Source: a virus
Strand: one strand, 5' to 3'
DNA: 12,554 nucleotides
UHGV virus genome: UHGV-0141061
Part shown: positions 49 through 12,507 of the stretch, piece after piece
Layout: each line of letters opens with the position of its first letter
Numbering within the stretch: the first letter of the stretch is position 1
Program-made: the position numbers and the translations under genes
The notes under the pieces: generated by a model
The model's database searches: none
What the model saw: the letters and a program-made list of their open reading frames with translations, nothing else
What the model was told of the DNA's origin: nothing

Positions 49-567
49 GCATATGGGTACGCATCATTCCTTTTTGGTATGGCTATATGTTTATGCGGAT
101 CATATAAGAATAAGGTTATTGGATATGCAATTCTTATTGCATCACTTTACTTGGCTGGATTTAAATATAATCATTATCTTTACGCATGGTTAAAAGAATT
201 TTCATTATCTATTAACAGCATTGAGAAAATAAATTTATACTTGCTTTTCAATCTATTATCTGGAATTGGAGTGGTATATTCCCTATGTAAGATTGGGGTT
301 ATGTCATGGTTTTCTGAATCAAAAATCATGGTCTTTTTAGGAAAGTTATCATTCTCGGCATACTTAATTCAAATGCCTGTATTTTATTGCTTATCAGGGC
401 CAGTTTATCATGAATCAAGGAAAATCATGAGCGACTCCAGCGCATGTTTATCAGCTGTTTTAATATCAGTGGTGATGCTTTATGCATGTTCTTACATCTT
501 TTATTTGCTCATCGACAGAAAAAGCATCGAGGTTTCCCATAGATTTGCCGCGATCTTTTCAAAGTAA
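49..567 (+). CDS. Acyltransferase family 3 (Oac/OafA-like O-antigen acetyltransferase), C-terminal fragment; 5' end cut by the contig/adapter boundary
   Basis: Frame is open from the adapter junction to TAA 565-567; very hydrophobic multi-pass sequence with an FLGKLSFSAYLIQMPVFY-type segment typical of the C-terminal part of family-3 acyltransferases; AT-rich; sits next to a tailspike as in Sf6-type phages. The track's start at 34 lies inside the adapter. Confidence 0.55.
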   Translation, partial: AYGYASFLFGMAICLCGSYKNKVIGYAILIASLYLAGFKYNHYLYAWLKEFSLSINSIEKINLYLLFNLLSGIGVVYSLCKIGVMSWFSESKIMVFLGKLSFSAYLIQMPVFYCLSGPVYHESRKIMSDSSACLSAVLISVVMLYACSYIFYLLIDRKSIEVSHRFAAIFSK

Positions 568-574
568 AATTAGA

Positions 575-596
575 AGCCATGCGTTAGCGCATGGCT
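575..596. terminator. Candidate bidirectional terminator hairpin between convergent genes
   Basis: Perfect 9-bp inverted repeat AGCCATGCG / CGCATGGCT with a 4-nt loop, between stop codons at 565-567 (+) and 603-605 (-); flanks only moderately T-rich. Confidence 0.4.
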
Positions 597-602
597 TGAC
601 CT

Positions 603-1667
603 TTAGTAAGAGATAGGTATTTCTCCTGTAGAGAAGTTGCCTGCTGCACCTTCCCTGCTGCATAAAGCGAACTTCTTATCAACCACATCCCTTGAGTCTG
701 TAGCAATAATTTCATGGCAAATATTATTTGCAGATCTGTGCACGAATGTATTTACAACAGGCTTACTGGACGATGTTCCTTTGGCCCTCGTTCCGTCTAT
801 AAGGCAATCAGACACCGACATAAGTCCTGAAACTAGGTTATTGCTTGAATCCCAATCTATCAACGACTTATCAAAATACACGCTTCCTAACATATAGGTT
901 GTCCCTCCGGAGTAACCAACAAACCTGCGCAGCACTCCACCTTCCAGCCTAATATAGCTGCGAGACATTCCAGACGTAAAGTTCATGAAAGTTATGTCCA
1001 TATTGCTCTCAAGACCATAAAGGCATGATGCATACTCATTCAGGTATCCAATATAAGCTAAAACCTTACAACCAATTGATTTCGCAGGTGTCAGTTTGAC
1101 TATTGATATTTCTCTGGAAGTTGAATCATGGTAAGAGATGGCCCACTCAAATCTTGCATTTTTACCATTAAAGGTGCTTCCGGAGAAATCTATAACGCCA
1201 GGCATAATGAAATCACGAATAATGCTATTTTGTGTCTTAAAATTATTTTTAAATGAAACAATGTTAAGTGTGACTGCGTCAGGCCAGTAGATATTTGTAG
1301 ATATAATTACATTTTTTGGCAGATTTAATGCTCTTGGCTGAACAGGGCTACCAGTGGAAACAACATTATCACACCTGCATGTGAAGAGATCTACAAGCCC
1401 AGTTTTGTCCGATGATATTCTTACCGAACCCCCTTTGACAATAAAATCCCCCTTATGCTCTCCATAGTCAGTGCGAATCCCAAAGGGACCAATATCTGAG
1501 TTTATAATCTGCGTTGATTCATCAAAAGCGCCAGTACCAAAAGCCGCGCCATTAATTATCCTGCAATTGTCTATCAAAACCTTAGACGATCCATAATGAA
1601 GATTGAAGCTATCAACAGTGCAATCTCTTACCACAGTGTCACGGCTATAATTACCATCAATAGAACG
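603..1667 (-). CDS. Tailspike, distal (receptor-binding, beta-helix-like) portion; same frame as 1668-2849 but separated from it by TGA at 1668-1670
   Basis: Track ORF 603-1634 starts at GTG; the frame is open upstream to the TGA (linking codons RSIDGNYSRDTV); Gly/Ser/Asn/Thr-rich beta-strand-like sequence; AT-rich. Confidence 0.55.
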   Translation of the reverse strand, partial: RSIDGNYSRDTVVRDCTVDSFNLHYGSSKVLIDNCRIINGAAFGTGAFDESTQIINSDIGPFGIRTDYGEHKGDFIVKGGSVRISSDKTGLVDLFTCRCDNVVSTGSPVQPRALNLPKNVIISTNIYWPDAVTLNIVSFKNNFKTQNSIIRDFIMPGVIDFSGSTFNGKNARFEWAISYHDSTSREISIVKLTPAKSIGCKVLAYIGYLNEYASCLYGLESNMDITFMNFTSGMSRSYIRLEGGVLRRFVGYSGGTTYMLGSVYFDKSLIDWDSSNNLVSGLMSVSDCLIDGTRAKGTSSSKPVVNTFVHRSANNICHEIIATDSRDVVDKKFALCSREGAAGNFSTGEIPISY

Positions 1668-2849
1668 TCACCCTTTCCCAACAACAGTGCTAAAAAAAGA
1701 ATGCTTCAGAGTAAACTCTAGAGTCAATGTGTAGCGAGATTCAGAATCAGGTTGTGTCATCCCCGATGAGCACAAATACCAATTAACACCGTATGTATTA
1801 CTACTACCAAAAATTGCAGAGTTGATGGGTATTACGCCTAAGGTATTATCATAATTAACCCTTACATCAACCATAGACCTTTTGATATCAACAGCCGTGC
1901 CAGTAAACGTCCCTGATAACTTAGGCAATACAATGACAGTCCTTCGCACAGGCAGCTTATATAAAGTACAGATAAGTGAAGAGTTGTATGTATTCTTAAA
2001 TGTATACGCTAAATCACTTCCTTTGGTTAGTAGGTTAACTTCACCTTTGTATTTTGGCGTGAAAGTGCTGCCAAGCAATCGGTACAAGTCAATTTCAGTA
2101 CCAGACATCTTAACTAAGGAATTATCCCATCCAGTGGTTGACTCTGTAAATGTTAGCGCGGAAGTTAGCTCGTTTAATGGATATGCTGATGGTGTAAAAT
2201 CTTTAATGTATGTAGATGCGTCTCTCTCATCAGCATAAACAATCTTACCGCCAGCCAGGTTGAACGTGCAATTGCTGAGATCAAAATCTCCGTATAACGT
2301 TGTCTCTTTGTCGATAGTGAAAGTCAGTGGCATAGTTGAGTAGATTTTCACTGGAGTTCCTTTAAACTCAGCAAAAACAGAATTCAACTGATCGCTATTT
2401 CTTTCACCATCAGCAGCAGCTATATCGTATACAGAAAGCCTGACCTCTAACCCCCCTATTATTTTGTAACCGTCTGGCGAACTAATTTCATCCATGAACC
2501 TTTGCTCAAACTGGTCAGGGTCATACTTCAGCACATTCGGAAAATAGAACTGCTGAGAACCGTACGCATCGTATACAGCCATAGAATGGCCTTGCACAGT
2601 TACGAATTTGGCAATCTGTCCGTTATATACAGGATACCCGCCAGCGTTAATGATGATTGGCTGTGCAACAGGAACGTGAGAACCGTCTTCGTTTTCCACA
2701 TAAACCTGAATCTGGTTTTCAGGATTTACCGGGTCAGTGCCAATTTTACCGATATAAATTTTGCCATTGGCTACGGCTTTAAAAGAACGAGCCATAGTGA
2801 AGAGTTGCGAAGGCATGCTTACCACAACATTTGCGGTGATATCTGACAT
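1668..2849 (-). CDS. P22-type tailspike, N-terminal part including the head-binding domain; ends at an in-frame TGA
   Basis: From ATG 2847-2849 (GGAG 7 nt upstream): [78 protein letters not shown], which closely parallels the P22 gp9 head-binding domain as I recall it. The track's start at 2897 is an upstream in-frame extension. Confidence 0.8.
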
Positions 2850-2937
2850 TTCATTGCTCCAGACGAATGATATGATGCAACCATGATGTGATTGCATACC
2901 GAAATGGTACTATTGAGTATTTATCCAGTAGGTTACG

Positions 2938-3231
2938 ATGCCATTCCACCCAACTGGTGAGGCATCAAGGATGTACAGCAAATACGACGAGGCGCAGTTT
3001 CACTTGAGACTTCCGCATGAACTTCACGCGAAAATTAAACAGCGTGCGAAGATGAATAACAGGTCGCTGAACTCAGAGATAATTGCAGCGATTGAAGAAT
3101 CATTGACTAAACAAAGCTCTGCATCAGTTTACATTGACGATGCAGAGCGTATGGCAGAACAACAATCCGATATGGTAAAGAAAATTGTCTTTGATACGCT
3201 CAAAGAGCTATATAAAAAAGACAGCAGCTAA
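2938..3231 (+). CDS. mnt: Mnt-like ribbon-helix-helix repressor
   Basis: FHLRLPHELHAKIKQRAKMNNRSLNSEIIAAIEESL...DAERMAEQQSDMVKKIVFDTLKELYKK parallels P22 Mnt (FNFRMPMEVREKLKFRAEANGRSMNSELLQIVQDAL...DAERLADEQSELVKKMVFDTLKDLYKK, recalled). An alternative start is ATG 2971. Confidence 0.8.
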   Translation: MPFHPTGEASRMYSKYDEAQFHLRLPHELHAKIKQRAKMNNRSLNSEIIAAIEESLTKQSSASVYIDDAERMAEQQSDMVKKIVFDTLKELYKKDSS

Positions 3232-3238
3232 CTATCAG

Positions 3239-3742
3239 TTACGGAGGATTCCCGATAGGGGGTAAGGGGGTATTTGTATTTATTGTCTTTTGTATATTGT
3301 CTTTTGTGTTTGACTGATTCGGTAAATTGCTTTTTACCGATTTGGTGAAGGTTTGTTTTACCGAATTGGTAAATGTTTTACCGAATCCGTTAACTTTCGT
3401 TTTCCACTCGGAAATGTTTGTATTCATACCAACTTGACGCCCCACCTGAATGAGAACTCCCATTCTGATAAGCTCGTTTTTGGCGGTAGAGCATTTGGTT
3501 GGTGCCATGCCAGTGAGTTCAGCGAACTGTTCGTTTCCGATCCAATCTATTTTTTTGTTGTAACCGTATGTCTTGCGCCACACAGCCATAACAATCAGTA
3601 ACTGATGTAGAGTAAGTCCAGAAAGCATGGCGGCTTCTAACAGTGTGTTTGCAGTCCGAGTGTAGCCATCTTCGAGTTCTGCCACGCGATGCTCCACGAC
3701 CTCCAGTTGAGGCCTGTAATCAGCTAACTTAACGACGCCCAT
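3239..3742 (-). CDS. Replication initiator O-like protein, N-terminal (iteron-binding) domain only; C-terminal domain absent
   Basis: DGYTRTANTLLEA..LTLHQLLIVMAVWRKTYGYNKKIDWIGNEQFAELTGMAPTKCSTAKNELIRMGVLIQ..NISEW parallels the lambda O N-terminal domain (recalled). AGGAG lies upstream of ATG 3740-3742. The ORF ends at TAA 3239-3241 just after the iteron and A+T-rich segment, where lambda O continues for about 130 more codons. Confidence 0.7.
   Translation of the reverse strand: MGVVKLADYRPQLEVVEHRVAELEDGYTRTANTLLEAAMLSGLTLHQLLIVMAVWRKTYGYNKKIDWIGNEQFAELTGMAPTKCSTAKNELIRMGVLIQVGRQVGMNTNISEWKTKVNGFGKTFTNSVKQTFTKSVKSNLPNQSNTKDNIQKTINTNTPLPPIGNPP
3318..3393. repeat. ori-like iteron array inside the O-like gene
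   Basis: Three direct 18-bp repeats TTTTACCGA(T/A)TTGGT(G/A)AA at 3332-3349 and 3356-3373 and TTTTACCGAATCCGTTAA at 3376-3393, plus an inverted partial copy ATTCGGTAAA at 3318-3327; an A+T-rich segment follows at about 3270-3317, arranged as in lambda ori. Confidence 0.5.
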
Positions 3743-3890
3743 GTTTCACTCCTGCTTTGGCTAGTCTGTAAACACCAACAAGGCGCTCTGCGAACGCCCT
3801 GTTATTTGCTGCGGCTACCACTAATCCCTCAGGTGAATCAGGGTGTCGAATCTCTTCTTTTTCCTGGTATTTCTTACGACGTTTTGTCAT
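3729..3890 (-). CDS. Small basic hypothetical protein (53 aa) between cII and O, overlapping the O-like start
   Basis: ATG 3888-3890 with AGGAG 7 nt upstream; MTKRRKKYQEKEEIRHPDSPEGLVVAAANNRAFAERLVGVYRLAKAGVKHGRR; stop TAA 3729-3731 overlaps the O-like start codon in another frame. Below the track's size cut-off; no homolog recognised. Confidence 0.3.
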   Translation of the reverse strand: MTKRRKKYQEKEEIRHPDSPEGLVVAAANNRAFAERLVGVYRLAKAGVKHGRR

Positions 3891-3900
3891 AATTACTCCT

Positions 3901-3976
3901 GTAGATTGATCCAGTAATTCCCTCAGAATTGCATATCAATTTGCTTAAAATCCTCGGTGGCGGCCGGGGATTTTTT
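3901..3976 (+). ncRNA. oop: OOP-like antisense RNA, antisense to the 3' end of cII, with intrinsic terminator
   Basis: gtagattgatccagtaatt..ctcagaa..tcctcggtggcggccgggga+TTTTTT parallels lambda OOP RNA (GUUGAUAGAUCCAGUAAUGACCUCAGAA...CGCUCGGUUGCCGCCGGGCGUUUUUU, recalled); hairpin 3952-3969 followed by a T-tract 3971-3976; a candidate -10 CATAAT is at 3888-3893. Confidence 0.5.
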
Positions 3977-4219
3977 CTTTGTGATTCCATCCAATGCATA
4001 CTTAAAAGCCCTGCTAATCGGACTGATGTCTGATGCCATTCCGAAAGCACACAAGACCGAAGCAATAAACCTCCAGTCCGTTCTGCTTATCTTCGATTCA
4101 TGACAGCCAATCATCTTTGCCAGACCGCGCTGGGTAAGCGTTGACAGGTTGATGAGTAAATCAGTTTCAGCGCGATCAATTTCTCGCTGTGTTGGCTTGC
4201 TATAACTTGCTTGTGTCAT
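3923..4219 (-). CDS. cII: CII-like transcriptional activator
   Basis: C-terminal ..KISRTDW..ITKKKSPAATEDFKQIDMQF parallels lambda CII ..QISRWKRDW..LTNKKRPAATERSEQIQMEF; position downstream of cro. Confidence 0.85.
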   Translation of the reverse strand: MTQASYSKPTQREIDRAETDLLINLSTLTQRGLAKMIGCHESKISRTDWRFIASVLCAFGMASDISPISRAFKYALDGITKKKSPAATEDFKQIDMQF

Positions 4220-4303
4220 TTGTTAATTTTCCAATAGTGAATAGTTAGTTGAAAGGTATGCGTGGAAACGCATATGGCCTTAGTTGGTCAGATATCTTGG
4301 GGC

Positions 4304-4349
4304 TCGCTTTGTCAGCGACGTAGGACGAATGTCCATTGTGAAAAGAGCG
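4304..4349 (-). promoter_or_regulatory. nutR-like site: boxA CGCTCTTTT and P22-type boxB hairpin TCGCTGACAAAGCGA
   Basis: On the - strand just downstream of the cro stop: boxA-like at 4341-4349, boxB stem-loop at 4304-4318 (5-bp stem, GACAA loop). The spacer is about 22 nt, longer than in lambda. Confidence 0.45.
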
Positions 4350-4356
4350 GTGTTAC

Positions 4357-4557
4357 TTATGCAGTTGTTTTTTTGTTACTTGGGAAGGGCTTTATTTCTT
4401 CCGCATAAACGCTTCCATCAGCGTTTATAGTTAAAAAAATCTTTCGGCCTGCATGAATGGCCTTGTTAATCGCGCTTTGATATACGCCGAGATCTTTAGC
4501 CGTCTTGGTTTGCCCAAAGCGTATTGCATAATCTTTCAGGGTTATGCGTTGTTCCAT
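4357..4557 (-). CDS. cro: Cro repressor, near-identical to lambda Cro
   Basis: 66 aa [66 protein letters not shown]; differs from recalled lambda Cro at about 2 residues; AGGAGG precedes the ATG. Confidence 0.95.
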
Positions 4558-4581
4558 ACAACCTCCTTAGTACAGGCAACC

Positions 4582-5371
<790 letters not shown>

Positions 5372-5402
5372 TTGTTTTATTTTTCACGTAATAGGATGAT
5401 TT

Positions 5403-5744
5403 ATGACACAATTTCAACTTGCATTAATCGCTAGAGAAGTTGATGGAGAAGTCATCCATCTTCGCACCAAAGACGGATACATCAATGCCACCGCGATGTG
5501 CAAGTCTGCGGGGAAGCTACTTGCTGACTATACACGACTAAAAACAACACAAGATTTTTTTGATGAATTATCACGCGATATGGGGATTCCCATATCGGAG
5601 TTAATTCAATCATTTAAAGGCGGAAGAGCAGAGAATCAAGGGACTTGGGTTCATCCAGACATCGCAATTAATTTAGCTCAGTGGCTATCTCCAAAATTTG
5701 CAGTGCAAGTATCGAGATGGGTGCGTGAGTGGATGTCAGGTTAA
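5403..5744 (+). CDS. KilA-N domain protein (113 aa) immediately downstream of cI, in the position of lambda rexA
   Basis: AGGA 6 nt upstream of ATG 5403; GYINATAMCKSAGK...GTWVHPDIAINLAQWLSPKFAVQVSRWV is the characteristic KilA-N pattern; same strand as cI. Confidence 0.7.
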   Translation: MTQFQLALIAREVDGEVIHLRTKDGYINATAMCKSAGKLLADYTRLKTTQDFFDELSRDMGIPISELIQSFKGGRAENQGTWVHPDIAINLAQWLSPKFAVQVSRWVREWMSG

Positions 5745-5783
5745 AGAGCGCCTGCCGAACTCCCTATCCACCTTAAGCGGTAT

Positions 5784-6162
5784 ATGACAAACCGAGGCAG
5801 AGTTCCTCATACGCACTTTTCTATGCTTAATGAACTGACGTTTAACTTGGTTGCGCCACTTGAACAGGCCGGATATACGCTGCCAGAAAAAATGGTCCCT
5901 GATATTTCAGAGGGTAGGGTTTTCTCGCAATGGCTCCGTGACAACCGGGGGGTTGAGCCGAAGACATTCCCAACATATAACCATGAGTACCCAGATGGCC
6001 GGACATTCCCGGTACGTCTATACCCAAACGAATATTGCAGATTTCAAACAATACTTCAACGAAGTGTGGCTGCCTCAGTACGCTCCTAAATATTTTGCTG
6101 AACGAGACCAAAGGGCATTGACGTTGATTGAGAAAATCATGCTACCTGACCTTGATTCCTAA
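5784..6162 (+). pseudogene. Hypothetical protein with a broken reading frame (+1 shift between two overlapping ORFs 5784-6089 and 5851-6162)
   Basis: Frame 1 ...FPTYNHEYPDGRTFPVRLYPNEY and frame 2 ...NIADFKQYFNEVWLPQYAPKYFAERDQRALTLIEKIMLPDLDS both look protein-like and switch near 6020-6040; frame 1 is also in frame with the upstream KilA-N ORF across TAA 5742-5744; weak ribosome-binding site. Confidence 0.4.
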
Positions 6163-6170
6163 ATGTTATT

Positions 6171-6196
6171 CCCGGCCACAGAGCCGGGTTTTCTTT
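6171..6196 (+). terminator. Intrinsic terminator ending the cI operon
   Basis: CCCGGC-cacaga-GCCGGG stem-loop followed by TTTTCTTT, 8 nt after the stop at 6160-6162. Confidence 0.7.
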
Positions 6197-6348
6197 GCCT
6201 CACGATCCCCCTCACCCAAGAACACATAACCAATTGTATCTATTTGAAAATAAATAGATACAACTCACTAAACATAGCAGTTCAGATCTCTCACCTACCA
6301 AACAATGCACCACTGCAAAAAATAAATTCATATAAAAAACATACAGAT

Positions 6349-6410
6349 AACCATCTGCGGTGATGAATTATCTCTAGCGGTGTTGACATAAATACCACTG
6401 GCGGTGATAC
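6349..6410 (+). promoter_or_regulatory. Lambda-type left operator OL3 (6349-6365), OL2 (6369-6385), OL1 (6393-6409) with PL (-35 TTGACA 6382-6387, -10 GATACT 6405-6410)
   Basis: aaccatctgcggtgatg, tatctctagcggtgttg, taccactggcggtgata and the PL hexamers read directly; near-identical to lambda OL/PL. Confidence 0.9.
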
Positions 6411-6479
6411 TAAACACATCAGCAGGACGCACTACTCACCAGGGCGGTGAATATACAACGATTCAAATATGAATCTACG

Positions 6480-6494
6480 GCGCTGACAAAGCGC
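6480..6494 (+). promoter_or_regulatory. nutL-like boxB hairpin GCGCTGACAAAGCGC (P22 type)
   Basis: Perfect 5-bp stem with GACAA loop about 65 nt downstream of PL; matches the P22 boxB-left sequence as I recall it; no clear boxA upstream. Confidence 0.5.
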
Positions 6495-6557
6495 AATAAC
6501 CAAAGTGAACTTTGGGGTGAATGCAGAAGCTAACCTTCTCGGCGGAGGCGCTTTGCA

Positions 6558-6758
6558 ATGATTACGCTAAGCGAAATGCTTCGCTCATATAAACCAGATG
6601 AACACACTAAGGACGCTATCGACTGGCTGGAAGATGATGACTGTAACTATCAGGAAAAAGCCGCTGAATGGTTCTGGGATGCAATAACCGAAAGAGTTAA
6701 GGCTGAATATGCCTTCGCAATATTCAAACGCAGACACATTTTTGGAGAAGCTGCATGA
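6558..6758 (+). CDS. Small acidic hypothetical protein (66 aa), first gene of the PL operon
   Basis: GGAGG 9 nt upstream of ATG 6558; stop overlaps the next start (ATGA at 6755-6758), implying translational coupling; no homolog recognised. Confidence 0.5.
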   Translation: MITLSEMLRSYKPDEHTKDAIDWLEDDDCNYQEKAAEWFWDAITERVKAEYAFAIFKRRHIFGEAA

Positions 6759-7090
6759 GCAATATCGTTGAATTCGTTAAACAGCAGGAGCAGTTATTCT
6801 GCGGAGCATTGACTGAACAGACGGTGACATGGGCTAAGGAAAGCCAGTTTGCAATTCAGTATTTCCAGAAAAACGATTACCTGGCTAAAACAGCACTGGC
6901 AAATCCAACCAGCGCACAGAACGCCATCATCAATGTTGCGGCGATCGGCATCACCTTAAACCCGGCCAGCAAACTGGCTTATCTGGTTCCTCGCGACGGC
7001 ATGGTGTGCCTTGATATCAGTTACATGGGATTACTTCATCTTGCGCAATCGACAGGATCAATTAAGTGGGGGCAATGCAAACTGGTGTAA
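6755..7090 (+). CDS. RecT/Red-beta-family recombinase, N-terminal fragment (truncated)
   Basis: ..NAIINVAAIGITLNPASKLAYLVPRDGMVCLDISYMGLLHLAQSTGSI.. follows the conserved RecT core pattern (E. coli RecT ..IVQCSQLGLEPGSALGHAYLLPFG..IIGYRGMIDLARRSGQI.., recalled) but stops at 111 aa where full-length proteins have about 270. Confidence 0.5.
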   Translation: MSNIVEFVKQQEQLFCGALTEQTVTWAKESQFAIQYFQKNDYLAKTALANPTSAQNAIINVAAIGITLNPASKLAYLVPRDGMVCLDISYMGLLHLAQSTGSIKWGQCKLV

Positions 7091-7223
7091 AGGGTGTGAG
7101 CACTTTTCAATAGTAGCACCGCAGCAAGATGGGTGATGAAAACAAGTATTTATAACTTAAAGGCATTAAAAAATCGCTTATAGATCAAAAGAAATCTACG
7201 TCAAATATTACTATATTTCAATG

Positions 7224-7232
7224 TGTTATAAT
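7224..7232 (+). promoter_or_regulatory. Candidate extended -10 promoter (TGtTATAAT) for the downstream small ORF
   Basis: TG at 7224-7225 and TATAAT at 7227-7232 inside a very AT-rich segment (7091-7250); no good -35. Confidence 0.3.
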
Positions 7233-7261
7233 TACCCGTCCATAAAATGGGGAGACACAAA

Positions 7262-7504
7262 ATGTTCAAACGCTGCATCACCAAGTGTGGAAGCACACCT
7301 GACATCCACGCTTTTATTAATGAAGATGGTAAGCTTGTTGTTGAGAGGAGTGGTCATTTTATTAGCAAACAACTTATCATTACCTCTCCAGCGGAGATGG
7401 CCGGGGAATGGATAGTTTCTGAACCAGAGGAGTGGCACACCCCTCTTCCTTATGGCCCTCAGGGACTGATTTATAACCGTTATGTTCAGAAGGAGGCGGG
7501 TTGA
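7262..7504 (+). CDS. Hypothetical protein (80 aa)
   Basis: GGAGAC 5 nt upstream of ATG 7262; the track ORF begins at the in-frame ATG 7247, which has no ribosome-binding site; no homolog recognised. Confidence 0.4.
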   Translation: MFKRCITKCGSTPDIHAFINEDGKLVVERSGHFISKQLIITSPAEMAGEWIVSEPEEWHTPLPYGPQGLIYNRYVQKEAG

Positions 7505-7781
7505 CAATGCCAGGCATAACATCGCCGAGCAATCGAAAGAAAAACAGAACAAGGTAAACGTTGACCTTGCAGCATCAGGCGTGGCGTACAGAGAGCGCCT
7601 TAACATACCTGTTATCTGAGCAGGTAGCACGAGAGCAACCTGAGCACTCACGCGAGTATTTCATGGAGCGCGTCAGATACTATCGCGAGCAGTCGTTAAA
7701 CCTGCCCAAGGGAAGCAACCCATGGTATATCGAGATGGATGAACAGAACGCCAAGAAGTAAGCGCAATTTGAACGAATGCG

Positions 7782-7838
7782 AACCCGCCGAGTGCGGGTT
7801 TTCTTTTATCTGAACTCGCTACGGCGAGTTTTGTTTTA
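7782..7838 (+). terminator. Two tandem intrinsic terminators
   Basis: AACCCGC-cgagt-GCGGGTT followed by TTTTCTTTT (7782-7807), and ACTCGC-tacg-GCGAGT followed by TTTTGTTTT (7814-7838). Confidence 0.6.
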
Positions 7839-7850
7839 TGGAGACAAGAA

Positions 7851-8195
7851 ATGTCAGATTTGGCTATGAAGGTTTTGAAATGGCAATCAACTGGCGATGT
7901 CGGCATCAGTAGCGCAACTCTTGCCTCAATCGCATGTGGCCTGAAAAAGAATATCTATGGTCATCACTTCGGCGCTCCCCATGACGCAGCAGACTTTCGG
8001 CGATGCGTTGCACTTGTTGAGCAGATTCCAGAAATCAGAGATTCATTCGACAAGGTTGCAAAGCGCGTTCCGGCATTCAAAGGAATCCTCAACGAATGGG
8101 ATTCCCTCGTTGCTCTGTTGAAGTCTGAAATGAAGATACACGGAAACAAAGCACCAGAGACTTACAGAAGAATCAGCGAGCTACGCAAGGACTAA
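7851..8195 (+). CDS. Hypothetical protein (114 aa), moron-like gene bracketed by terminators
   Basis: GGAGAC upstream of ATG 7851; terminator pairs immediately before (7782-7838) and after (8199-8259); no homolog recognised. Confidence 0.5.
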   Translation: MSDLAMKVLKWQSTGDVGISSATLASIACGLKKNIYGHHFGAPHDAADFRRCVALVEQIPEIRDSFDKVAKRVPAFKGILNEWDSLVALLKSEMKIHGNKAPETYRRISELRKD

Positions 8196-8198
8196 CCC

Positions 8199-8259
8199 GC
8201 CTCACACTCGATGAGGCCTGTTTATATCTGATAGAGCCGCTATATGGCGGTTTATTTTT
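8199..8259 (+). terminator. Terminator-like hairpins downstream of the 7851-8195 gene
   Basis: GCCTCA-cactcga-TGAGGC (8199-8217) followed by a T-rich stretch, and CCGC-tatatg-GCGG (8237-8250) followed by TTTATTTTT. Confidence 0.45.
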
Positions 8260-8274
8260 GCCTGGAGAATTAAG

Positions 8275-8466
8275 ATGACCGATACCAGCCTGATTCCTGA
8301 GAAAGAAGTGATGAACAAGCTCGGTGTTTCATCACGTCAGACAATCTGGAACTATACCAAACGGCACGGATTTCCGAAGCCAGTCAGAACCCACCCCAAA
8401 TCATACCTTCGTGAAGCTGTTGAAGGGTGGATTCTTAACGGTGGCGTTAATCAGAAATGCTCCTGA
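8275..8466 (+). CDS. AlpA/Xis-family DNA-binding protein (excisionase or regulator)
   Basis: GGAGA upstream of ATG 8275; ..MNKLGVSSRQTIWNYTKRHGFPKPVRT..YLREAVEGWI is the AlpA-type winged-helix pattern; lies beside the integrase; its 3' end overlaps the integrase 3' end by 20 bp. Confidence 0.8.
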   Translation: MTDTSLIPEKEVMNKLGVSSRQTIWNYTKRHGFPKPVRTHPKSYLREAVEGWILNGGVNQKCS

Positions 8467-8920
8467 TGTGCCAGAACAATTTATCAGCGTGAAGCTCATA
8501 CGCTTTGCGCTGAGCCTCTATCCAATCGAGTTTATTGTATACGGACATTATCCCGCCAAGTTCATGACCGAGCATTCGCTCAGTAACATGAGGCTCGACA
8601 TTCATCTCGGACAGCCGTGTAACAAGCGTTCTTCTGAAATCATGTGTTCGCCAGTAACCTAGGTCCATCCCTCCCCTTATTCTATTTACGAATCGGTTGG
8701 CTGCAGCGATGCTGATCGGTTTGTTTATGTCTTCTCCAGGGAAAAGAACATCATTGTACGTTGTCATGGCCTTTTCGAGGAAAGGCTTAATTTGTTCGAA
8801 GATTGGACGGCGGATAACATTACCCATCTTGCTATGCTCTTTCGGTACGGTCCATACGTTGTCCAGCAGGTCAAATTCTGTCTTTATTGCCAGCCTAAGT
8901 TCTGAGAGCCTCGCCCCCAC
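8447..8920 (-). pseudogene. Tyrosine integrase (P4 type), C-terminal catalytic fragment
   Basis: ..GARLSELRLAIKTEFDLLDNVWTVP..HDFRRT..LGHELGGIMSVYNKLDW.. shows the catalytic R/H-x-x-R/Y region; its frame differs from the central fragment at a C5 run (8914-8918). Confidence 0.8.
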
Positions 8921-9136
8921 AGCATAAGCATCTGATGAAGTAGCTTATTTGACGTAGACGCACGGCTTCTTTCAATAGCAAGCCAAATCTTAGCCAGTTC
9001 GTGATACGACAGTACCCGATCCCCTACCTCAGCGCGGGAGCCGAAGTCCCTTGGTTGGATGCTCATAATTGCGCAACTATCTATCAACTGACGCCGCATG
9101 CACCAACTAATTGCTGATCTTAGTTGACTTAGCACC
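8884..9136 (-). pseudogene. Tyrosine integrase, central fragment between the IS insertion and the frameshift
   Basis: In frame with the N-terminal fragment once the IS and one target duplication are removed (1341 bp, a multiple of 3); ends at a stop 8884-8886 created by the frameshift. Confidence 0.6.
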
Positions 9137-9200
9137 TGATGTAGCCCCCTGAAACACCAGACAGTAGCTGTATCTCCAGATAAGAGATAGGCTTGAATAT

Positions 9201-9596
9201 ATGTCTAACACTAACACCAATATTGAGATGACCGGGATCCTGTTAGGGCAAGAAGTCCGTAAACGTAAAACTCCTCAGGAGAAGATCGCCATTATCCAGC
9301 AGACGATGGAGCCGGGTATGAATGTCTCCCATGTCGCCCGCCTGCATGGTATCCAGCCCAGCCTGCTGTTTAAGTGGAAGAAGCAATATCAGGAAGGCAG
9401 CCTCACCGCCGTTGCGGCTGGAGAGGAAGTCGTTCCTGCTTCTGAGCTTACTGCTGCTCTGAAGCAGGTCCGGGAGCTTCAGCGCCTTCTGGGCAAGAAG
9501 ACGATAGAAGTTGAGATCCTAAAAGAAGCCGTGGAGTACGGTCAGTCGCGAAAATGGATAGCGCACGCGCCCTTGTTGCCAAAGGACGGGGAATAG
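9201..9596 (+). CDS. IS3-family transposase OrfA (helix-turn-helix and leucine zipper)
   Basis: ..[78 protein letters not shown].. resembles IS2 OrfA. Confidence 0.85.
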
Positions 9597-10435
9597 CCAT
9601 GGTCAGCCGGACCATGGGCGTGTCGCGTGCGCAACTGTCACTGCGGATTAACCGTTCTGCCGACTGGCAGGACAGGCGCTGTAACCGGCGTAATGAAGAA
9701 GCAGACGCAGAAATACTGTCGGCTATCCTCAACATTATCAGCGATATGCCGAGTTATGGTTATCGACGCGTGTGGGGCATCCTGCGCAAGCAACGTCGCA
9801 CAGAGGGACAGCCACCTGTGAATGCCAAACGGCTTTACAGGATAATGAGCGAGCATAACCTGTTGTTGTTGCATCACAAACCAGAGCGACCGAAGCGTGA
9901 ACATAAGGGCAAGATAGCGGTGGCAGAAAGCGATATGCGCTGGTGTTCAGATGGCTTCGAGTTCGGCTGCGACAACGGCGAAAAACTGCGGGTAACGTTC
10001 GCGCTGGACTGCTGCGACCGTGAGGCCATAGACTGGGCAGCAAGCACGGGAGGCTATGACAGTTCGACCGTGCAGGATGTGATGCTGAGGTCGGTGGAAA
10101 AGCGCTTCGGCGACAGGCTGCCGGAAACACCAGTGCAGTGGCTGACGGACAACGGTTCAGCATATACCGCGCATGAAACGCGGAGGTTCGCCAAAGAGCT
10201 GAATCTGGAGCCATGTACAACAGCGGTGAGCAGCCCGCAGAGCAATGGCATGGCCGAACGGTTCGTGAAGACGATGAAGGAAGACTATATCGCGTTCATG
10301 CCGAAACCGGATGTGAGAACAGCCCTGCGGAACCTTGCAGCGGCGTTCACGCATTACAATGAAAATCACCCGCATAGTGCGCTGGGATATCACTCTCCGA
10401 GAGAATACCGGCGGCAGCGGGCATCGTTAACTTAA
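9554..10435 (+). CDS. IS3-family transposase OrfB (DDE catalytic domain), in the -1 frame relative to OrfA
   Basis: ..[92 protein letters not shown].. is a DDE integrase-core pattern resembling IS2 OrfB; overlaps orfA by 43 nt. Confidence 0.85.
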
Positions 10436-10472
10436 GATACAAAAGCTGTCCGGAAATGGCGGGTCAAGATCA

Positions 10473-10965
10473 GCACCTGCCTTGCTCGGCGTGGATTATC
10501 TTTTTCTTCTTCGGTAAGCAGGTCAACCCATTGCTTAACCGTGATAGAAGATGCCGGACGATTAGGGAAGGCGTCATGCATGCGCTTCATAACCGTTGAT
10601 CGGTAAAGTGCCTGGGTCTTTTCTCTGAGAGTTGTAGAGACGTAGTTGTCGAACCAGTAGTCGAGACACTGGGCGACCGTCATGGAGTTCTCCACCTTCT
10701 CTTCAAAATAGGTGCGTGGATCCGTTCCTGAGAAATAGAGCTTCCGCAAGTCAGCAGTGATCTGTCTGGCATCCTTCAAAGACAGGGATGGGTATCGACC
10801 AAGCCCAAGTCGTTTAGGCTTGCCATACCAGCGATAGCGGTACTGGAACTGGATGACCCCCTTCGGTGAAATTCGTACGCTGAGGCCATCGGCATCAGCC
10901 ACTTCTTGTGGGCCCGAATATGGTTTACCATAAATAGTACGCAGTTTTGTGTCGCTTATAGCCAT
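10473..10965 (-). pseudogene. Tyrosine integrase (P4 type), N-terminal fragment upstream of the IS insertion
   Basis: MAISDTKLRTIYGKPYSGPQEVADADGLSVRISPKGVIQFQYRYRWYGKPKRLGLGRYPSLSLKDAR is the characteristic N-terminal arm-binding domain of P4-type integrases; the track ORF continues 13 codons into the IS before stopping. Confidence 0.8.
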
Positions 10966-11146
10966 AAATAATATTTGGTACGCTCAAAAATAATGGTTTG
11001 GTACACATCTGGTACACAATATCACATGGACAACAGCGCACAGTAAACAACTATATTTGACGTTCGTAGACATACTCAGGTGAAAAAATGGTTGTTTTTC
11101 GAGTTATAACAGACAGTTAATTAACTACAGTGGACAATGCTAGACA
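10966..11146. promoter_or_regulatory. Putative prophage-host junction (attL-like) and integrase promoter region with short direct repeats
   Basis: TGGTAC(ACA) at 10976-10981, 10999-11007 and 11010-11018; GACAATG at 11133-11139 and 11143-11149; palindrome TTAATTAA at 11118-11125; lies between the integrase start and sbcB. Confidence 0.3.
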
Positions 11147-12507
11147 ATGACAGACACAGATAAACAACCTACCTTCCTCTTTCACGATTACGAAACCTTT
11201 GGCACGCACCCCGCGTTAGATCGCCCTGCACAGTTCGCAGCCATTCGCACCGATAGCGAATTCAATGTCATCGGCGAACCCGAAGTCTTTTACTGCAAGC
11301 CCGCTGATGACTATTTACCCCAGCCAGGAGCCGTATTAATTACCGGTATTACCCCGCAGGAAGCACGGGCGAAAGGAGAAAACGAAGCCGCGTTTGCCGC
11401 CCGTATTCACTCGCTTTTTACCGTACCGAAGACCTGTATTCTGGGCTACAACAATGTGCGTTTCGACGACGAAGTCACACGCAACGTTTTTTATCGTAAT
11501 TTCTACGATCCTTACGCCTGGAGCTGGCAGCATGATAACTCGCGCTGGGATTTGCTGGATGTTATGCGTGCCTGTTATGCCCTGCGCCCGGAAGGAATAA
11601 ACTGGCCTGAAAATGATGACGGTCTACCGAGCTTTCGCCTTGAGCATTTAACCAAAGCGAATGGAATTGAACATAGCAACGCCCACGATGCGATGGCTGA
11701 TGTGTACGCCACTATTGCGATGGCGAAACTGGTAAAAACGCGTCAGCCACGTCTGTTTGATTATCTCTTTACCCATCGTAATAAACACAAACTGATGGCG
11801 TTGATTGATGTTCCGCAGATGAAACCCCTGGTTCACGTTTCCGGAATGTTTGGGGCATGGCGCGGCAATACCAGCTGGGTGGCACCGCTGGCGTGGCATC
11901 CAGAAAATCGCAATGCCGTAATTATGGTGGATTTGGCAGGAGACATTTCGCCATTACTGGAACTGGATAGCGACACATTGCGCGAGCGTTTATATACTGC
12001 AAAAGCCGATCTTGGCGATAACGCCGCCGTTCCGGTTAAGCTGGTGCATATCAATAAATGTCCGGTGCTGGCCCAGGCGAATACGCTACGCCCGGAAGAT
12101 GCCGACCGACTGGGAATTAATCGTCAGCATTGCCTCGATAACCTGAAAATTCTGCGTGAAAATCCGCAAGTGCGTGAAAAAGTGGTGGCGATATTCGCGG
12201 AAGCCGAACCGTTTACGCCTACAGATAACGTGGATGCACAGCTTTATAACGGCTTTTTCAGTGACGCAGATCGTGCAGCAATGAAAATTGTGCTGGAAAC
12301 CGAGCCACGTAATTTACCGGCACTGGATATCACTTTTGTTGATAAACGGATTGAAAAGCTGTTGTTCAATTATCGGGCACGCAACTTCCCGGGGACGCTG
12401 GATTATGCCGAGCAGCAACGCTGGCTGGAGCACCGCCGCCAGGTATTCACGCCAGAGTTTTTGCAGGGTTATGCTGATGAATTGCAGATGCTGGTACAAC
12501 AATATGC
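11147..12507 (+). CDS. sbcB: Exodeoxyribonuclease I (SbcB), 3' end truncated by the contig/adapter boundary
   Basis: By-eye translation with no stops: MTDTDKQPTFLFHDYETFGTHPALDRPAQFAAIRTDSEFNVIGEPEVFYCKPADDYLPQPGAVLITGITPQEA...EFLQGYADELQMLVQQYA matches E. coli SbcB except in the first 12 or so residues. Absent from the ORF track, presumably because it has no stop before the window end. Confidence 0.9.

Follow-up and report, generated by a model that had tools for sequence, protein, structure and literature searches.

A cryptic P22-like prophage remnant with lambda-type immunity at the sbcB gene of Escherichia coli

The UHGV virus genome UHGV-0141061, a stretch of 12,554 nt analysed here at its full length and called the window, is an entire metagenome contig (ENA ERZ652521, NODE_127_length_12554; locus L006 in the set of sister loci described below). 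It very probably contains most of a cryptic remnant, about 12.8 kb in total, of a temperate P22-like phage with Sf6/Sf101 architecture, which arose by ordinary prophage decay. The element resides at the sbcB gene of E. coli and is a remnant, not a complete P22-like member; it can neither lyse the cell nor build particles. Ordinary decay was one of two explanations offered by a first-pass annotation made from the letters of the window, and it is borne out by three deletions, an insertion sequence (IS) and a frameshift in the integrase gene int, a dead bstA-family gene, a stop codon in the tailspike gene, and nonsense changes in the cro and acyltransferase genes of sister copies.

Nextera i5 adapter sequence, composed of the index AGAGTAGA and the mosaic end AGATGTGTATAAGAGACAG, is present as an inverted repeat at both ends of the contig (positions 1-48 and 12508-12554), so that genomic DNA occupies positions 49-12507; a scan of the window found no adapter copy inside the contig. 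Both contig ends are therefore artificial, the acyltransferase gene being cut at the left and sbcB at the right. The adapter tails are a data-quality flag for the source assembly, which was built from untrimmed reads.

The proposal that the element is an sbcB-integrated prophage was confirmed, since both marks of the sbcB-integrating type (Sf101/2851) are present, namely the 13-bp attachment (att) core CGTAATCGTGAAA in the 5' part of sbcB and an adjacent homologous tyrosine integrase gene. The att core lies inside sbcB, and the element thus extends past 11146, the position at which its right boundary had been placed. A 46-kb scaffold (L003), identical to the window over 12,460 bases, spans the complete element between sbcB and dacD, in the order yeeE-yeeD-sbcB-element-dacD-sbmC-yeeA-yeeX-cobU, and carries a degenerate attR copy 1.6 kb to the left of the window start. 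Beyond the content of the window, the interval between sbcB and dacD in this scaffold holds only the remaining part of the acyltransferase gene and a HumD/UmuD fragment of 67 aa. The corresponding open reading frame (ORF), which adjoins attR (L004:10082-10285), is an N-terminal HumD/UmuD-like piece covering 55 of 129 profile positions, and is also a decayed accessory gene. The best identity of the dacD-cobU flank to any complete genome is 99.0%.

Deletion junctions and their recurrence in independent assemblies

The window contains three deletion junctions, J1, J2 and J3 (Table 1). The deletion at J1 took the C-terminal part of the replication gene O, the helicase gene, the nin region, Q, and the lysis, head and ejection genes; at the crossover, at most 1-2 nt are common to the two parental sequences. 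At J2, N and the following early-left genes are gone, while in the sbcB remnant E272 the same leader reaches N 54 nt further on. This junction, with its 'ta' microhomology, creates a chimeric ORF of 66 aa (6558-6758; RefSeq WP_249440021.1), whose PHROG match is limited to positions 40-102 of 102. The microhomology at the breakpoints amounts to 0-2 nt wherever both sides are readable, and the three deletions are illegitimate. All three scars suspected in the first-pass annotation are real; two of them fall outside the intervals originally given (3232-3240 for J1 and 6495-6560 for J2), and J3 is close to the 7090 indicated.

N, the C-terminal part of O, the helicase gene, nin, Q, and all lysis and morphogenesis genes are absent both from the window and from the whole element in L003, which holds nothing else between sbcB and dacD. 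The earlier statement that N, the O C-terminal domain, P, Q, and the lysis, head and tail genes are missing therefore applies to the complete element. The type of phage from which these modules were lost is represented by two intact P22-like prophages, L021, located at the same sbcB/dacD site, and L020, located at argW, which were found by a search with the full-length tailspike protein followed by contig look-up. They are 99.69% identical to the window over positions 49-3250, and past J1 they continue with gp16, gp20, gp7 and other ejection, tail accessory, coat and scaffold genes. As this match stops exactly at J1, the junction represents a deletion in a phage of this type. Two features of P22-like (Lederbergvirus-type) phages, a tailspike with a head-binding domain and an immI-type Mnt repressor encoded beside it, are found in the window; the coat, scaffold, portal, tail-accessory and ejection genes are found in L020 and L021, and in neither the window nor L003.

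The exact truncated O protein of 167 aa, which could not exist without J1, has entries in 58 blocks of a public assembly collection (SPAdes, MEGAHIT, Logan and NCBI). A set of ten related loci (L003-L012) was returned, one of which is the contig of the window. Wherever the remaining nine overlap the window, they are 99.4-100% identical to it, and those that reach J2, J3 and the boundary between int and the IS align across them unbroken. Among the junction-specific proteins, truncated O was found in 28 contigs, the J2 chimera in 36, and truncated recT in 30. In two of the loci, L007 and L008, the same J1-tailspike-acyltransferase block is accompanied by another cro (71 aa, HTH_3) and another cI (217 aa) at window-equivalent positions of about 4350-4960, and by another flank (dacD-ISL3 transposase-hlyE). 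Either recombination replaced the immunity region once the deletion had occurred, or the block was transferred from one strain to another; with both the immunity region and the flank differing, the J1 block has outlived at least one recombination event or transfer.

J1 is absent from all 5426 complete RefSeq E. coli genomes, none of which covers 80% or more of the window. Together with the untrimmed Nextera sequence at both contig ends, this would fit an assembly artefact in which the assembler, or reads that were chimeric or carried adapter, joined two prophages into a chimera. However, no adapter occurs inside the contig, and at none of the junctions do the parental sequences have a repeat in common on which an assembler could have joined them. 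Moreover, identical junctions are present in many independent assemblies generated with different assemblers, including an NCBI genome and the RefSeq protein for the chimeric ORF. A chimeric contig was rejected on these grounds, and the probability of such an artefact is negligible; a search of complete genomes alone would have wrongly suggested it. Neither chimerism nor missing modules lying between the junctions was found.

Gene content of the remnant

The gene map (Table 1) is based on an ORF listing, Pfam, PHROG and PADLOC scans, and comparison with phage lambda. It confirms the gene order of the P22-type map drawn in the first-pass annotation, which had missed the IS in int, the stop codon in the tailspike gene, the lesions of the bstA-family gene and the adapter at the contig ends.

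Table 1. Features of the window, with positions in nt from its first letter
Feature	Position	Strand	Basis and remarks
Acyl_transf_3 membrane acyltransferase, 3' part	49-567	+	last 172 codons and stop of a 382-aa protein; cut by adapter
Terminator-like hairpin	574-597	-	between convergent tailspike and acyltransferase genes; consensus scan
P22-type tailspike, 748 codons, pseudogene here	2849-603	-	PF09008 Head_binding, E 2.5e-66, residues 1-113
mnt, Arc/Mnt ribbon-helix-helix repressor, intact	2938-3231	+	PF03869, E 9e-15; PF11423 Repressor_Mnt, E 3e-14; both pass cutoffs
J1	3250/3251		19 nt past mnt stop joined to O codon ~164; three-way alignment with intact O and intact mnt-gp16 region
Truncated O replication initiator, N-terminal iteron-binding 167 aa	3742-3239	-	PF04492
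53-aa conserved lambdoid ORF between cII and O	3890-3729	-	phrog_1331, E 1e-37
cII-family activator, intact, not the lambda allele	4219-3923	-	PF05269; phrog_191, E 2e-36
nutR-like boxB hairpin TCGCTGACAAAGCGA	4304-4318	-	between cro and cII; pattern search, 2 mismatches to P22-type boxB
cro, lambda type, intact here	4557-4357	-	64/66 residues identical to lambda Cro
OR1-OR2-OR3 with PR and PRM	4584-4647		lambda specificity, at most 1 mismatch; PR-like promoter at 4610-4582
cI, lambda immunity type, 237 aa, intact	4658-5371	+	233/237 identical; T3A, K71N, R129K and S157Y relative to lambda
bstA-family (KilA-N + BstA_C) abortive-infection gene, pseudogene	5403-6164	+	alignment to intact 253-aa homologue of phage PhiR5_2
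OL3-OL2-OL1 and PL	6349-6411 (OL 6349-6409, PL 6383-6411)	+	lambda specificity
nutL boxB, P22 type, GCGCTGACAAAGCGC	6480-6494	+	pattern search
J2	6569/6570		PL leader joined to last 62 codons of phrog_3486 gene; compared with E272 and phage HK140
recT fragment, first 111 of ~303 codons	6755-7090	+	PF03837; alignment with HK140 RecT
J3	7087/7088		recT codon 111 joined to last ~48 nt of DUF550 gene; HK140 RecT alignment
Small early-left ORF	7247-7504	+	phrog_9613
DNA polymerase III theta-like fragment	7561-7761	+	annotated in reference prophages as pseudogene with internal stop
Small early-left ORF	7851-8195	+	phrog_1229
AlpA-like helix-turn-helix protein, putative excisionase/regulator, intact	8275-8466	+	Pfam AlpA, E 0.003 (weak, below curated cutoff); PHROG excisionase/regulator, E 2e-8
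int, C-terminal catalytic part	9136-8447	-	PF00589; aligned to intact 392-aa Int
IS3-family (IS2-group) element, 1336 bp, orfA/orfB	9137-10472	+	splits int at codon ~163
int, N-terminal arm-binding part	10965-10473	-	PF13356, E 2.5e-18
sbcB	11147-12507		ATG at 11147; 3' end cut by adapter
attL core TTTCACGATTACG	11180-11192		within 5' end of sbcB; same 13-bp core as phages Sf101 and 2851 (PMC4159516)

At the attR side, the acyltransferase gene is present at full length in sister loci, whose overlapping sequence is 100% identical to the part in the window. The full-length product of a sister copy matches PF01757 (E 2e-25) and a PHROG O-acetyltransferase family (E 7e-26), and has no NCBIfam match. 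Its cluster is widespread in Escherichia and Enterobacter hormaechei, with at least 90% identity to E. hormaechei proteins. The gene adjoins the tailspike gene and att, as do the Oac/OacB genes of serotype-converting phages, with which it shares only the fold family; orthology to Oac/OacB was rejected, the identity to Sf101 OacB being 25% over 103 aa (E 2e-4). Among the eight sister loci in which the gene is whole, L009 carries a nonsense change (W166stop).

The tailspike gene, which had been listed among the genes kept, is present and of P22 type, but the copy in the window is interrupted by an in-frame TGA at 1668-1670 (W394stop), the sole in-frame stop in its translation. The same stop is found in the identical L003, while eight of the nine sister loci (L004, L005 and L007-L012) have TGG. 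Neither the receptor-binding part of the tailspike (603-2500) nor the acyltransferase (49-567 and L004:8733-9881) gave a megablast match in the 5426 complete E. coli genomes and 50,697 phage records; in the megablast search of the tailspike-acyltransferase-attR block, the head-binding domain and the att/dacD end alone matched complete E. coli genomes and phages. At the protein level, the receptor-binding part is 58-69% identical to tailspikes with either a PF18668 N-terminal anchor or no recognised anchor, including those of the myophage vB_EcoM_ECO1230-10 and an E. hormaechei protein, and about 45% identical to Proteus mirabilis proteins. No arc or ant genes occur beside mnt, and Mnt, without ant to control, may only dampen transcription into the tailspike gene.

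The reference O gene codes for 276 aa. The truncated gene contains the replication origin (ori), consisting of four iterons (3309-3403, identified by repeat search) and an AT-rich region (3262-3308). The immunity region is of lambda type, as first proposed: CI and Cro are nearly identical to their lambda counterparts, and all six operators differ from the lambda operators by at most one mismatch. In the sister copy L011, cro carries the nonsense change Q16stop. Point differences at window-equivalent positions 4608 (OR2) and 6365 (OL3) in L010, and at 4583, beside OR1, in L005 and L009, represent possible operator variants. The boxB hairpins of nutL and nutR are of P22 type, neither lambda nutL nor lambda nutR being found within 2 mismatches, and both sites are orphan because N has been deleted. 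The combination of lambda-type immunity with other alleles of cII, O/ori and nut is the usual lambdoid mosaicism.

The 'KilA-N cassette' noted downstream of cI proved to be a KilA-N gene that is a broken member of the bstA family, whose canonical position is downstream of cI (PMC8585504). The GAA codon 114 is changed to TAA (5742-5744), and 2 nt are deleted near 6034; consequently, a single protein with KilA-N and BstA C-terminal domains is not encoded here, and a KilA-N fragment of 113 aa is the most that could be made. The intact homologue of PhiR5_2 matches PADLOC BstA (E 2.5e-20) and the PHROG BstA family (E 1.8e-82). The 113-aa KilA-N product (5403-5744) was found in at least 1000 contigs, where it is annotated as 'MULTISPECIES: KilA-N domain-containing protein [Enterobacteriaceae]', and also in the argW remnant EC2641; the truncated bstA allele circulates widely.

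At the attL side, the int gene is located beside sbcB, as annotated, but is not intact. Besides the IS insertion, which is flanked by a 5-bp target duplication (GCACC at 9132-9136 and 10473-10477), it carries a 1-nt deletion in a G run near 8913 that is polymorphic among the sisters. The IS insertion is common to the sisters, since their contigs enter or break inside the IS at the same position of int. The element is not IS2 proper, as its ends and protein differ from those of IS2 and the RefSeq label is only 'IS3 family'. It is uncommon, a near-full copy being present in 106 of the 5426 complete E. coli genomes; the eight matches listed at the top, all 100% identical, come from frog and sediment isolates from China. 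A member of this IS family also splits the tailspike gene of the argW remnant in EC2641. The gene preceding int, assigned as alpA/xis, codes for a putative excisionase/regulator according to its PHROG match, and the product is annotated as AlpA family in Stx phages; the Pfam AlpA match is weak. Within 110 nt of the phrog_1229 ORF (window-equivalent 7889-8000), L009 has 10 differences, including compensating indels, a cluster more suggestive of a short recombined patch than of point mutations.

Decay and possible retention of genes

Ordinary prophage decay very probably started from a parent resembling the intact prophages L020 and L021. One internal illegitimate deletion removed the replication, nin, Q, lysis, head and ejection genes, another N and adjacent early-left genes, and a further one the block from the middle of recT to the DUF550 gene; the IS3-family element split int, presumably after these deletions. 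What is left comes from the prophage ends and from the immunity region. Tailspike, mnt and acyltransferase adjoin attR, int and the early-left genes adjoin attL, and the immunity region contributes the cI/cro/cII switch, accompanied by ori and nut sites that are now orphans. Decay is ongoing, as bstA is dead, the tailspike is dead in the window copy, and sisters have a dead cro or acyltransferase gene. The element cannot excise because int is destroyed, cannot replicate from its own ori because the C-terminal part of O and the helicase are absent, and has no antitermination because both N and Q are absent. The CI repressor, expressed from PRM, probably represses PR and PL and would give lambda-type immunity, and the acyltransferase, where intact, may acylate surface polysaccharide.

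Coding point changes within the family of sister copies point in the same direction as the lesions of the window. With one recombinant cluster of single-nucleotide polymorphisms left out, 11 distinct changes were counted, comprising 3 nonsense, 3 missense and 5 synonymous substitutions. The copies are too little diverged for dN/dS, and only a rough count of nonsense enrichment was made: 3 of 11 compares with about 4.7% expected for random substitutions (rough binomial P ~0.013, from small numbers and imperfect metagenome assemblies). On this rough count, knockouts are clearly not filtered out.

Several observations weigh against decay alone. With J1 absent from the complete genomes, the host lineage is known only from draft and metagenome assemblies. 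Every copy seen has kept cI with its operators, mnt and cII intact; seven of the eight sister loci with a whole acyltransferase gene, all but L009, have a complete 382-aa ORF; and the J1-tailspike-acyltransferase block occurs in two chromosomal backgrounds with two immunity regions (L007 and L008 versus the rest). This intactness and spread could reflect persistence or selection and not pure neutrality. They are also what favours domestication of the remnant as a module, along with the wide distribution of the acyltransferase cluster and the earlier remark on retention of an acetylase in a P22-like remnant (PMC3303846). Selection would then keep cI and mnt for superinfection immunity and the acyltransferase for a change of O antigen that blocks related phages or alters antigenicity, the tailspike being either a passenger or a protein with a host function. 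However, the window itself has a knocked-out tailspike, sister copies have a knocked-out acyltransferase (L009) or cro (L011), and bstA, the sole recognisable defence gene, is dead. As the copies differ by no more than 0.2%, intact ORFs in most of them are expected without selection; nonsense changes are over-represented rather than depleted; and other sbcB remnants keep different subsets of genes, some having dropped cI or mnt entirely. Geometry alone accounts for the retained set, since internal deletions leave the two prophage ends, which such remnants share. The suggestion that the retained set has been kept for the benefit of the host therefore received no positive support, and domestication is considered unlikely. 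The same low probability applies to a more elaborate form of it, a small fixed 'immunity and surface' island in which CI would exclude phages of lambda immunity, O-antigen changes made by the acyltransferase would protect against phages with a matching tailspike, and the orphan ori, truncated iteron-binding O and orphan nut sites might act as decoys that interfere with related superinfecting phages. Selection would then have carried the block across E. coli backgrounds, whereas the lytic genes, int and bstA would have been lost because they were costly.

A helper-dependent way of life is far less probable still. The complete ori and the P22-type nut sites that remain, the tailspike intact in most copies, and the swap of the immunity region in L007 and L008, which shows recombination with other lambdoid elements, would suit a satellite-like or rescuable defective phage that uses ori, nut and tailspike upon helper infection, or that recombines to shift the host range of its helper. 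Yet int is destroyed, which prevents excision, and the element lacks a packaging signal region as well as genes for terminase, capsid redirection or primase. Pfam and PHROG searches of all ORFs likewise revealed no primase/replicase or capsid- or packaging-redirecting genes of the kind expected in a phage satellite (PICI/P4-like). Donation of genes by recombination is general to any prophage remnant and is not a dedicated mechanism. Ordinary prophage decay thus remains by far the best-supported origin of the element, and a host benefit through CI immunity or O-antigen acylation is a plausible possibility.

A cryptic P22-like/lambdoid prophage remnant is a well-known kind of element, and the main use of the present one is as a clean example of stepwise prophage decay, with breakpoints mapped to the base, an intact parent type and independent knockouts in sisters. 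If cI works, it would make carriers in this gut E. coli lineage immune to phages of lambda immunity, and if the acyltransferase works, their serotype would be changed; both effects bear on phage therapy and serotyping, and neither is new in principle. For engineered pyocins or phages, the receptor-binding part of the tailspike and the acyltransferase are a potential receptor-binding module, of the kind already made for O104.

Comparison with known phages and prophage remnants

Phage Sf101, a serotype-converting Lederbergvirus of Shigella flexneri, integrates at sbcB and carries an acyltransferase gene next to the tailspike gene (PMC4159516). The integrase of the element belongs to the same family as those of Sf101, 2851, Stx2c phage 1717, mEp234, HK544 and HK140, with nucleotide identity of about 98% over the parts of int, and the 13-bp att core in sbcB is likewise shared. 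These sbcB-integrating phages are complete and 38-62 kb in length, whereas the element measures 12.8 kb and its int is destroyed. Sf101 has the same end architecture, comprising an mnt-like gene, the tailspike, a convergent acyltransferase, att and int, but its tailspike receptor-binding part and acyltransferase are unrelated to those of the element at the DNA level, and the immunity of the element is of lambda type. Relative to phage lambda itself, rexAB is replaced by the dead bstA-family gene, and cII, nut, O and ori are other alleles. The bstA-family gene occupies the same position directly downstream of cI as BstA of prophage BTP1 and its relatives, and its intact homologue has the same KilA-N + BstA_C architecture (PMC8585504), while the gene in the window is broken by a stop and a frameshift.

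Four other P22-like remnants, which were independently deleted and are found in complete E. coli genomes, show different outcomes of decay. At sbcB, E272 (tailspike-mnt...O-cII-cro-cI-bstA-N...int) shares the cI-cro-cII module with the element and keeps N, a full-length O and a full tailspike gene; P276M has an N-terminal fragment of the tailspike gene, mnt, tail-gene scraps and N...int, and is without cI; in PEC41, a full tailspike gene is directly joined to cIII-kil...int, and both mnt and cI are missing. These three have the same int and att as the element, or related ones. The argW remnant EC2641 has the same cI-cro-cII module, the 113-aa KilA-N product and the IS3-family element, and its tailspike gene is split by the IS. 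J1, J2 and J3 occur in none of these four remnants. All have lost the morphogenesis block, and the deletion endpoints differ in each.

The strain of the 2011 E. coli O104:H4 outbreak contains a defective P22-like remnant that keeps the tailspike gene and an adjacent downstream O-antigen acetylase gene (PMC3303846). As in the element described here, much of the P22-like genome has been lost and the tailspike has been kept together with a downstream acetylase or acyltransferase. The tailspike of O104:H4 has 659 aa, compared with 748 aa for that of the window, and judging by length the two differ; the copy in the window is a pseudogene.

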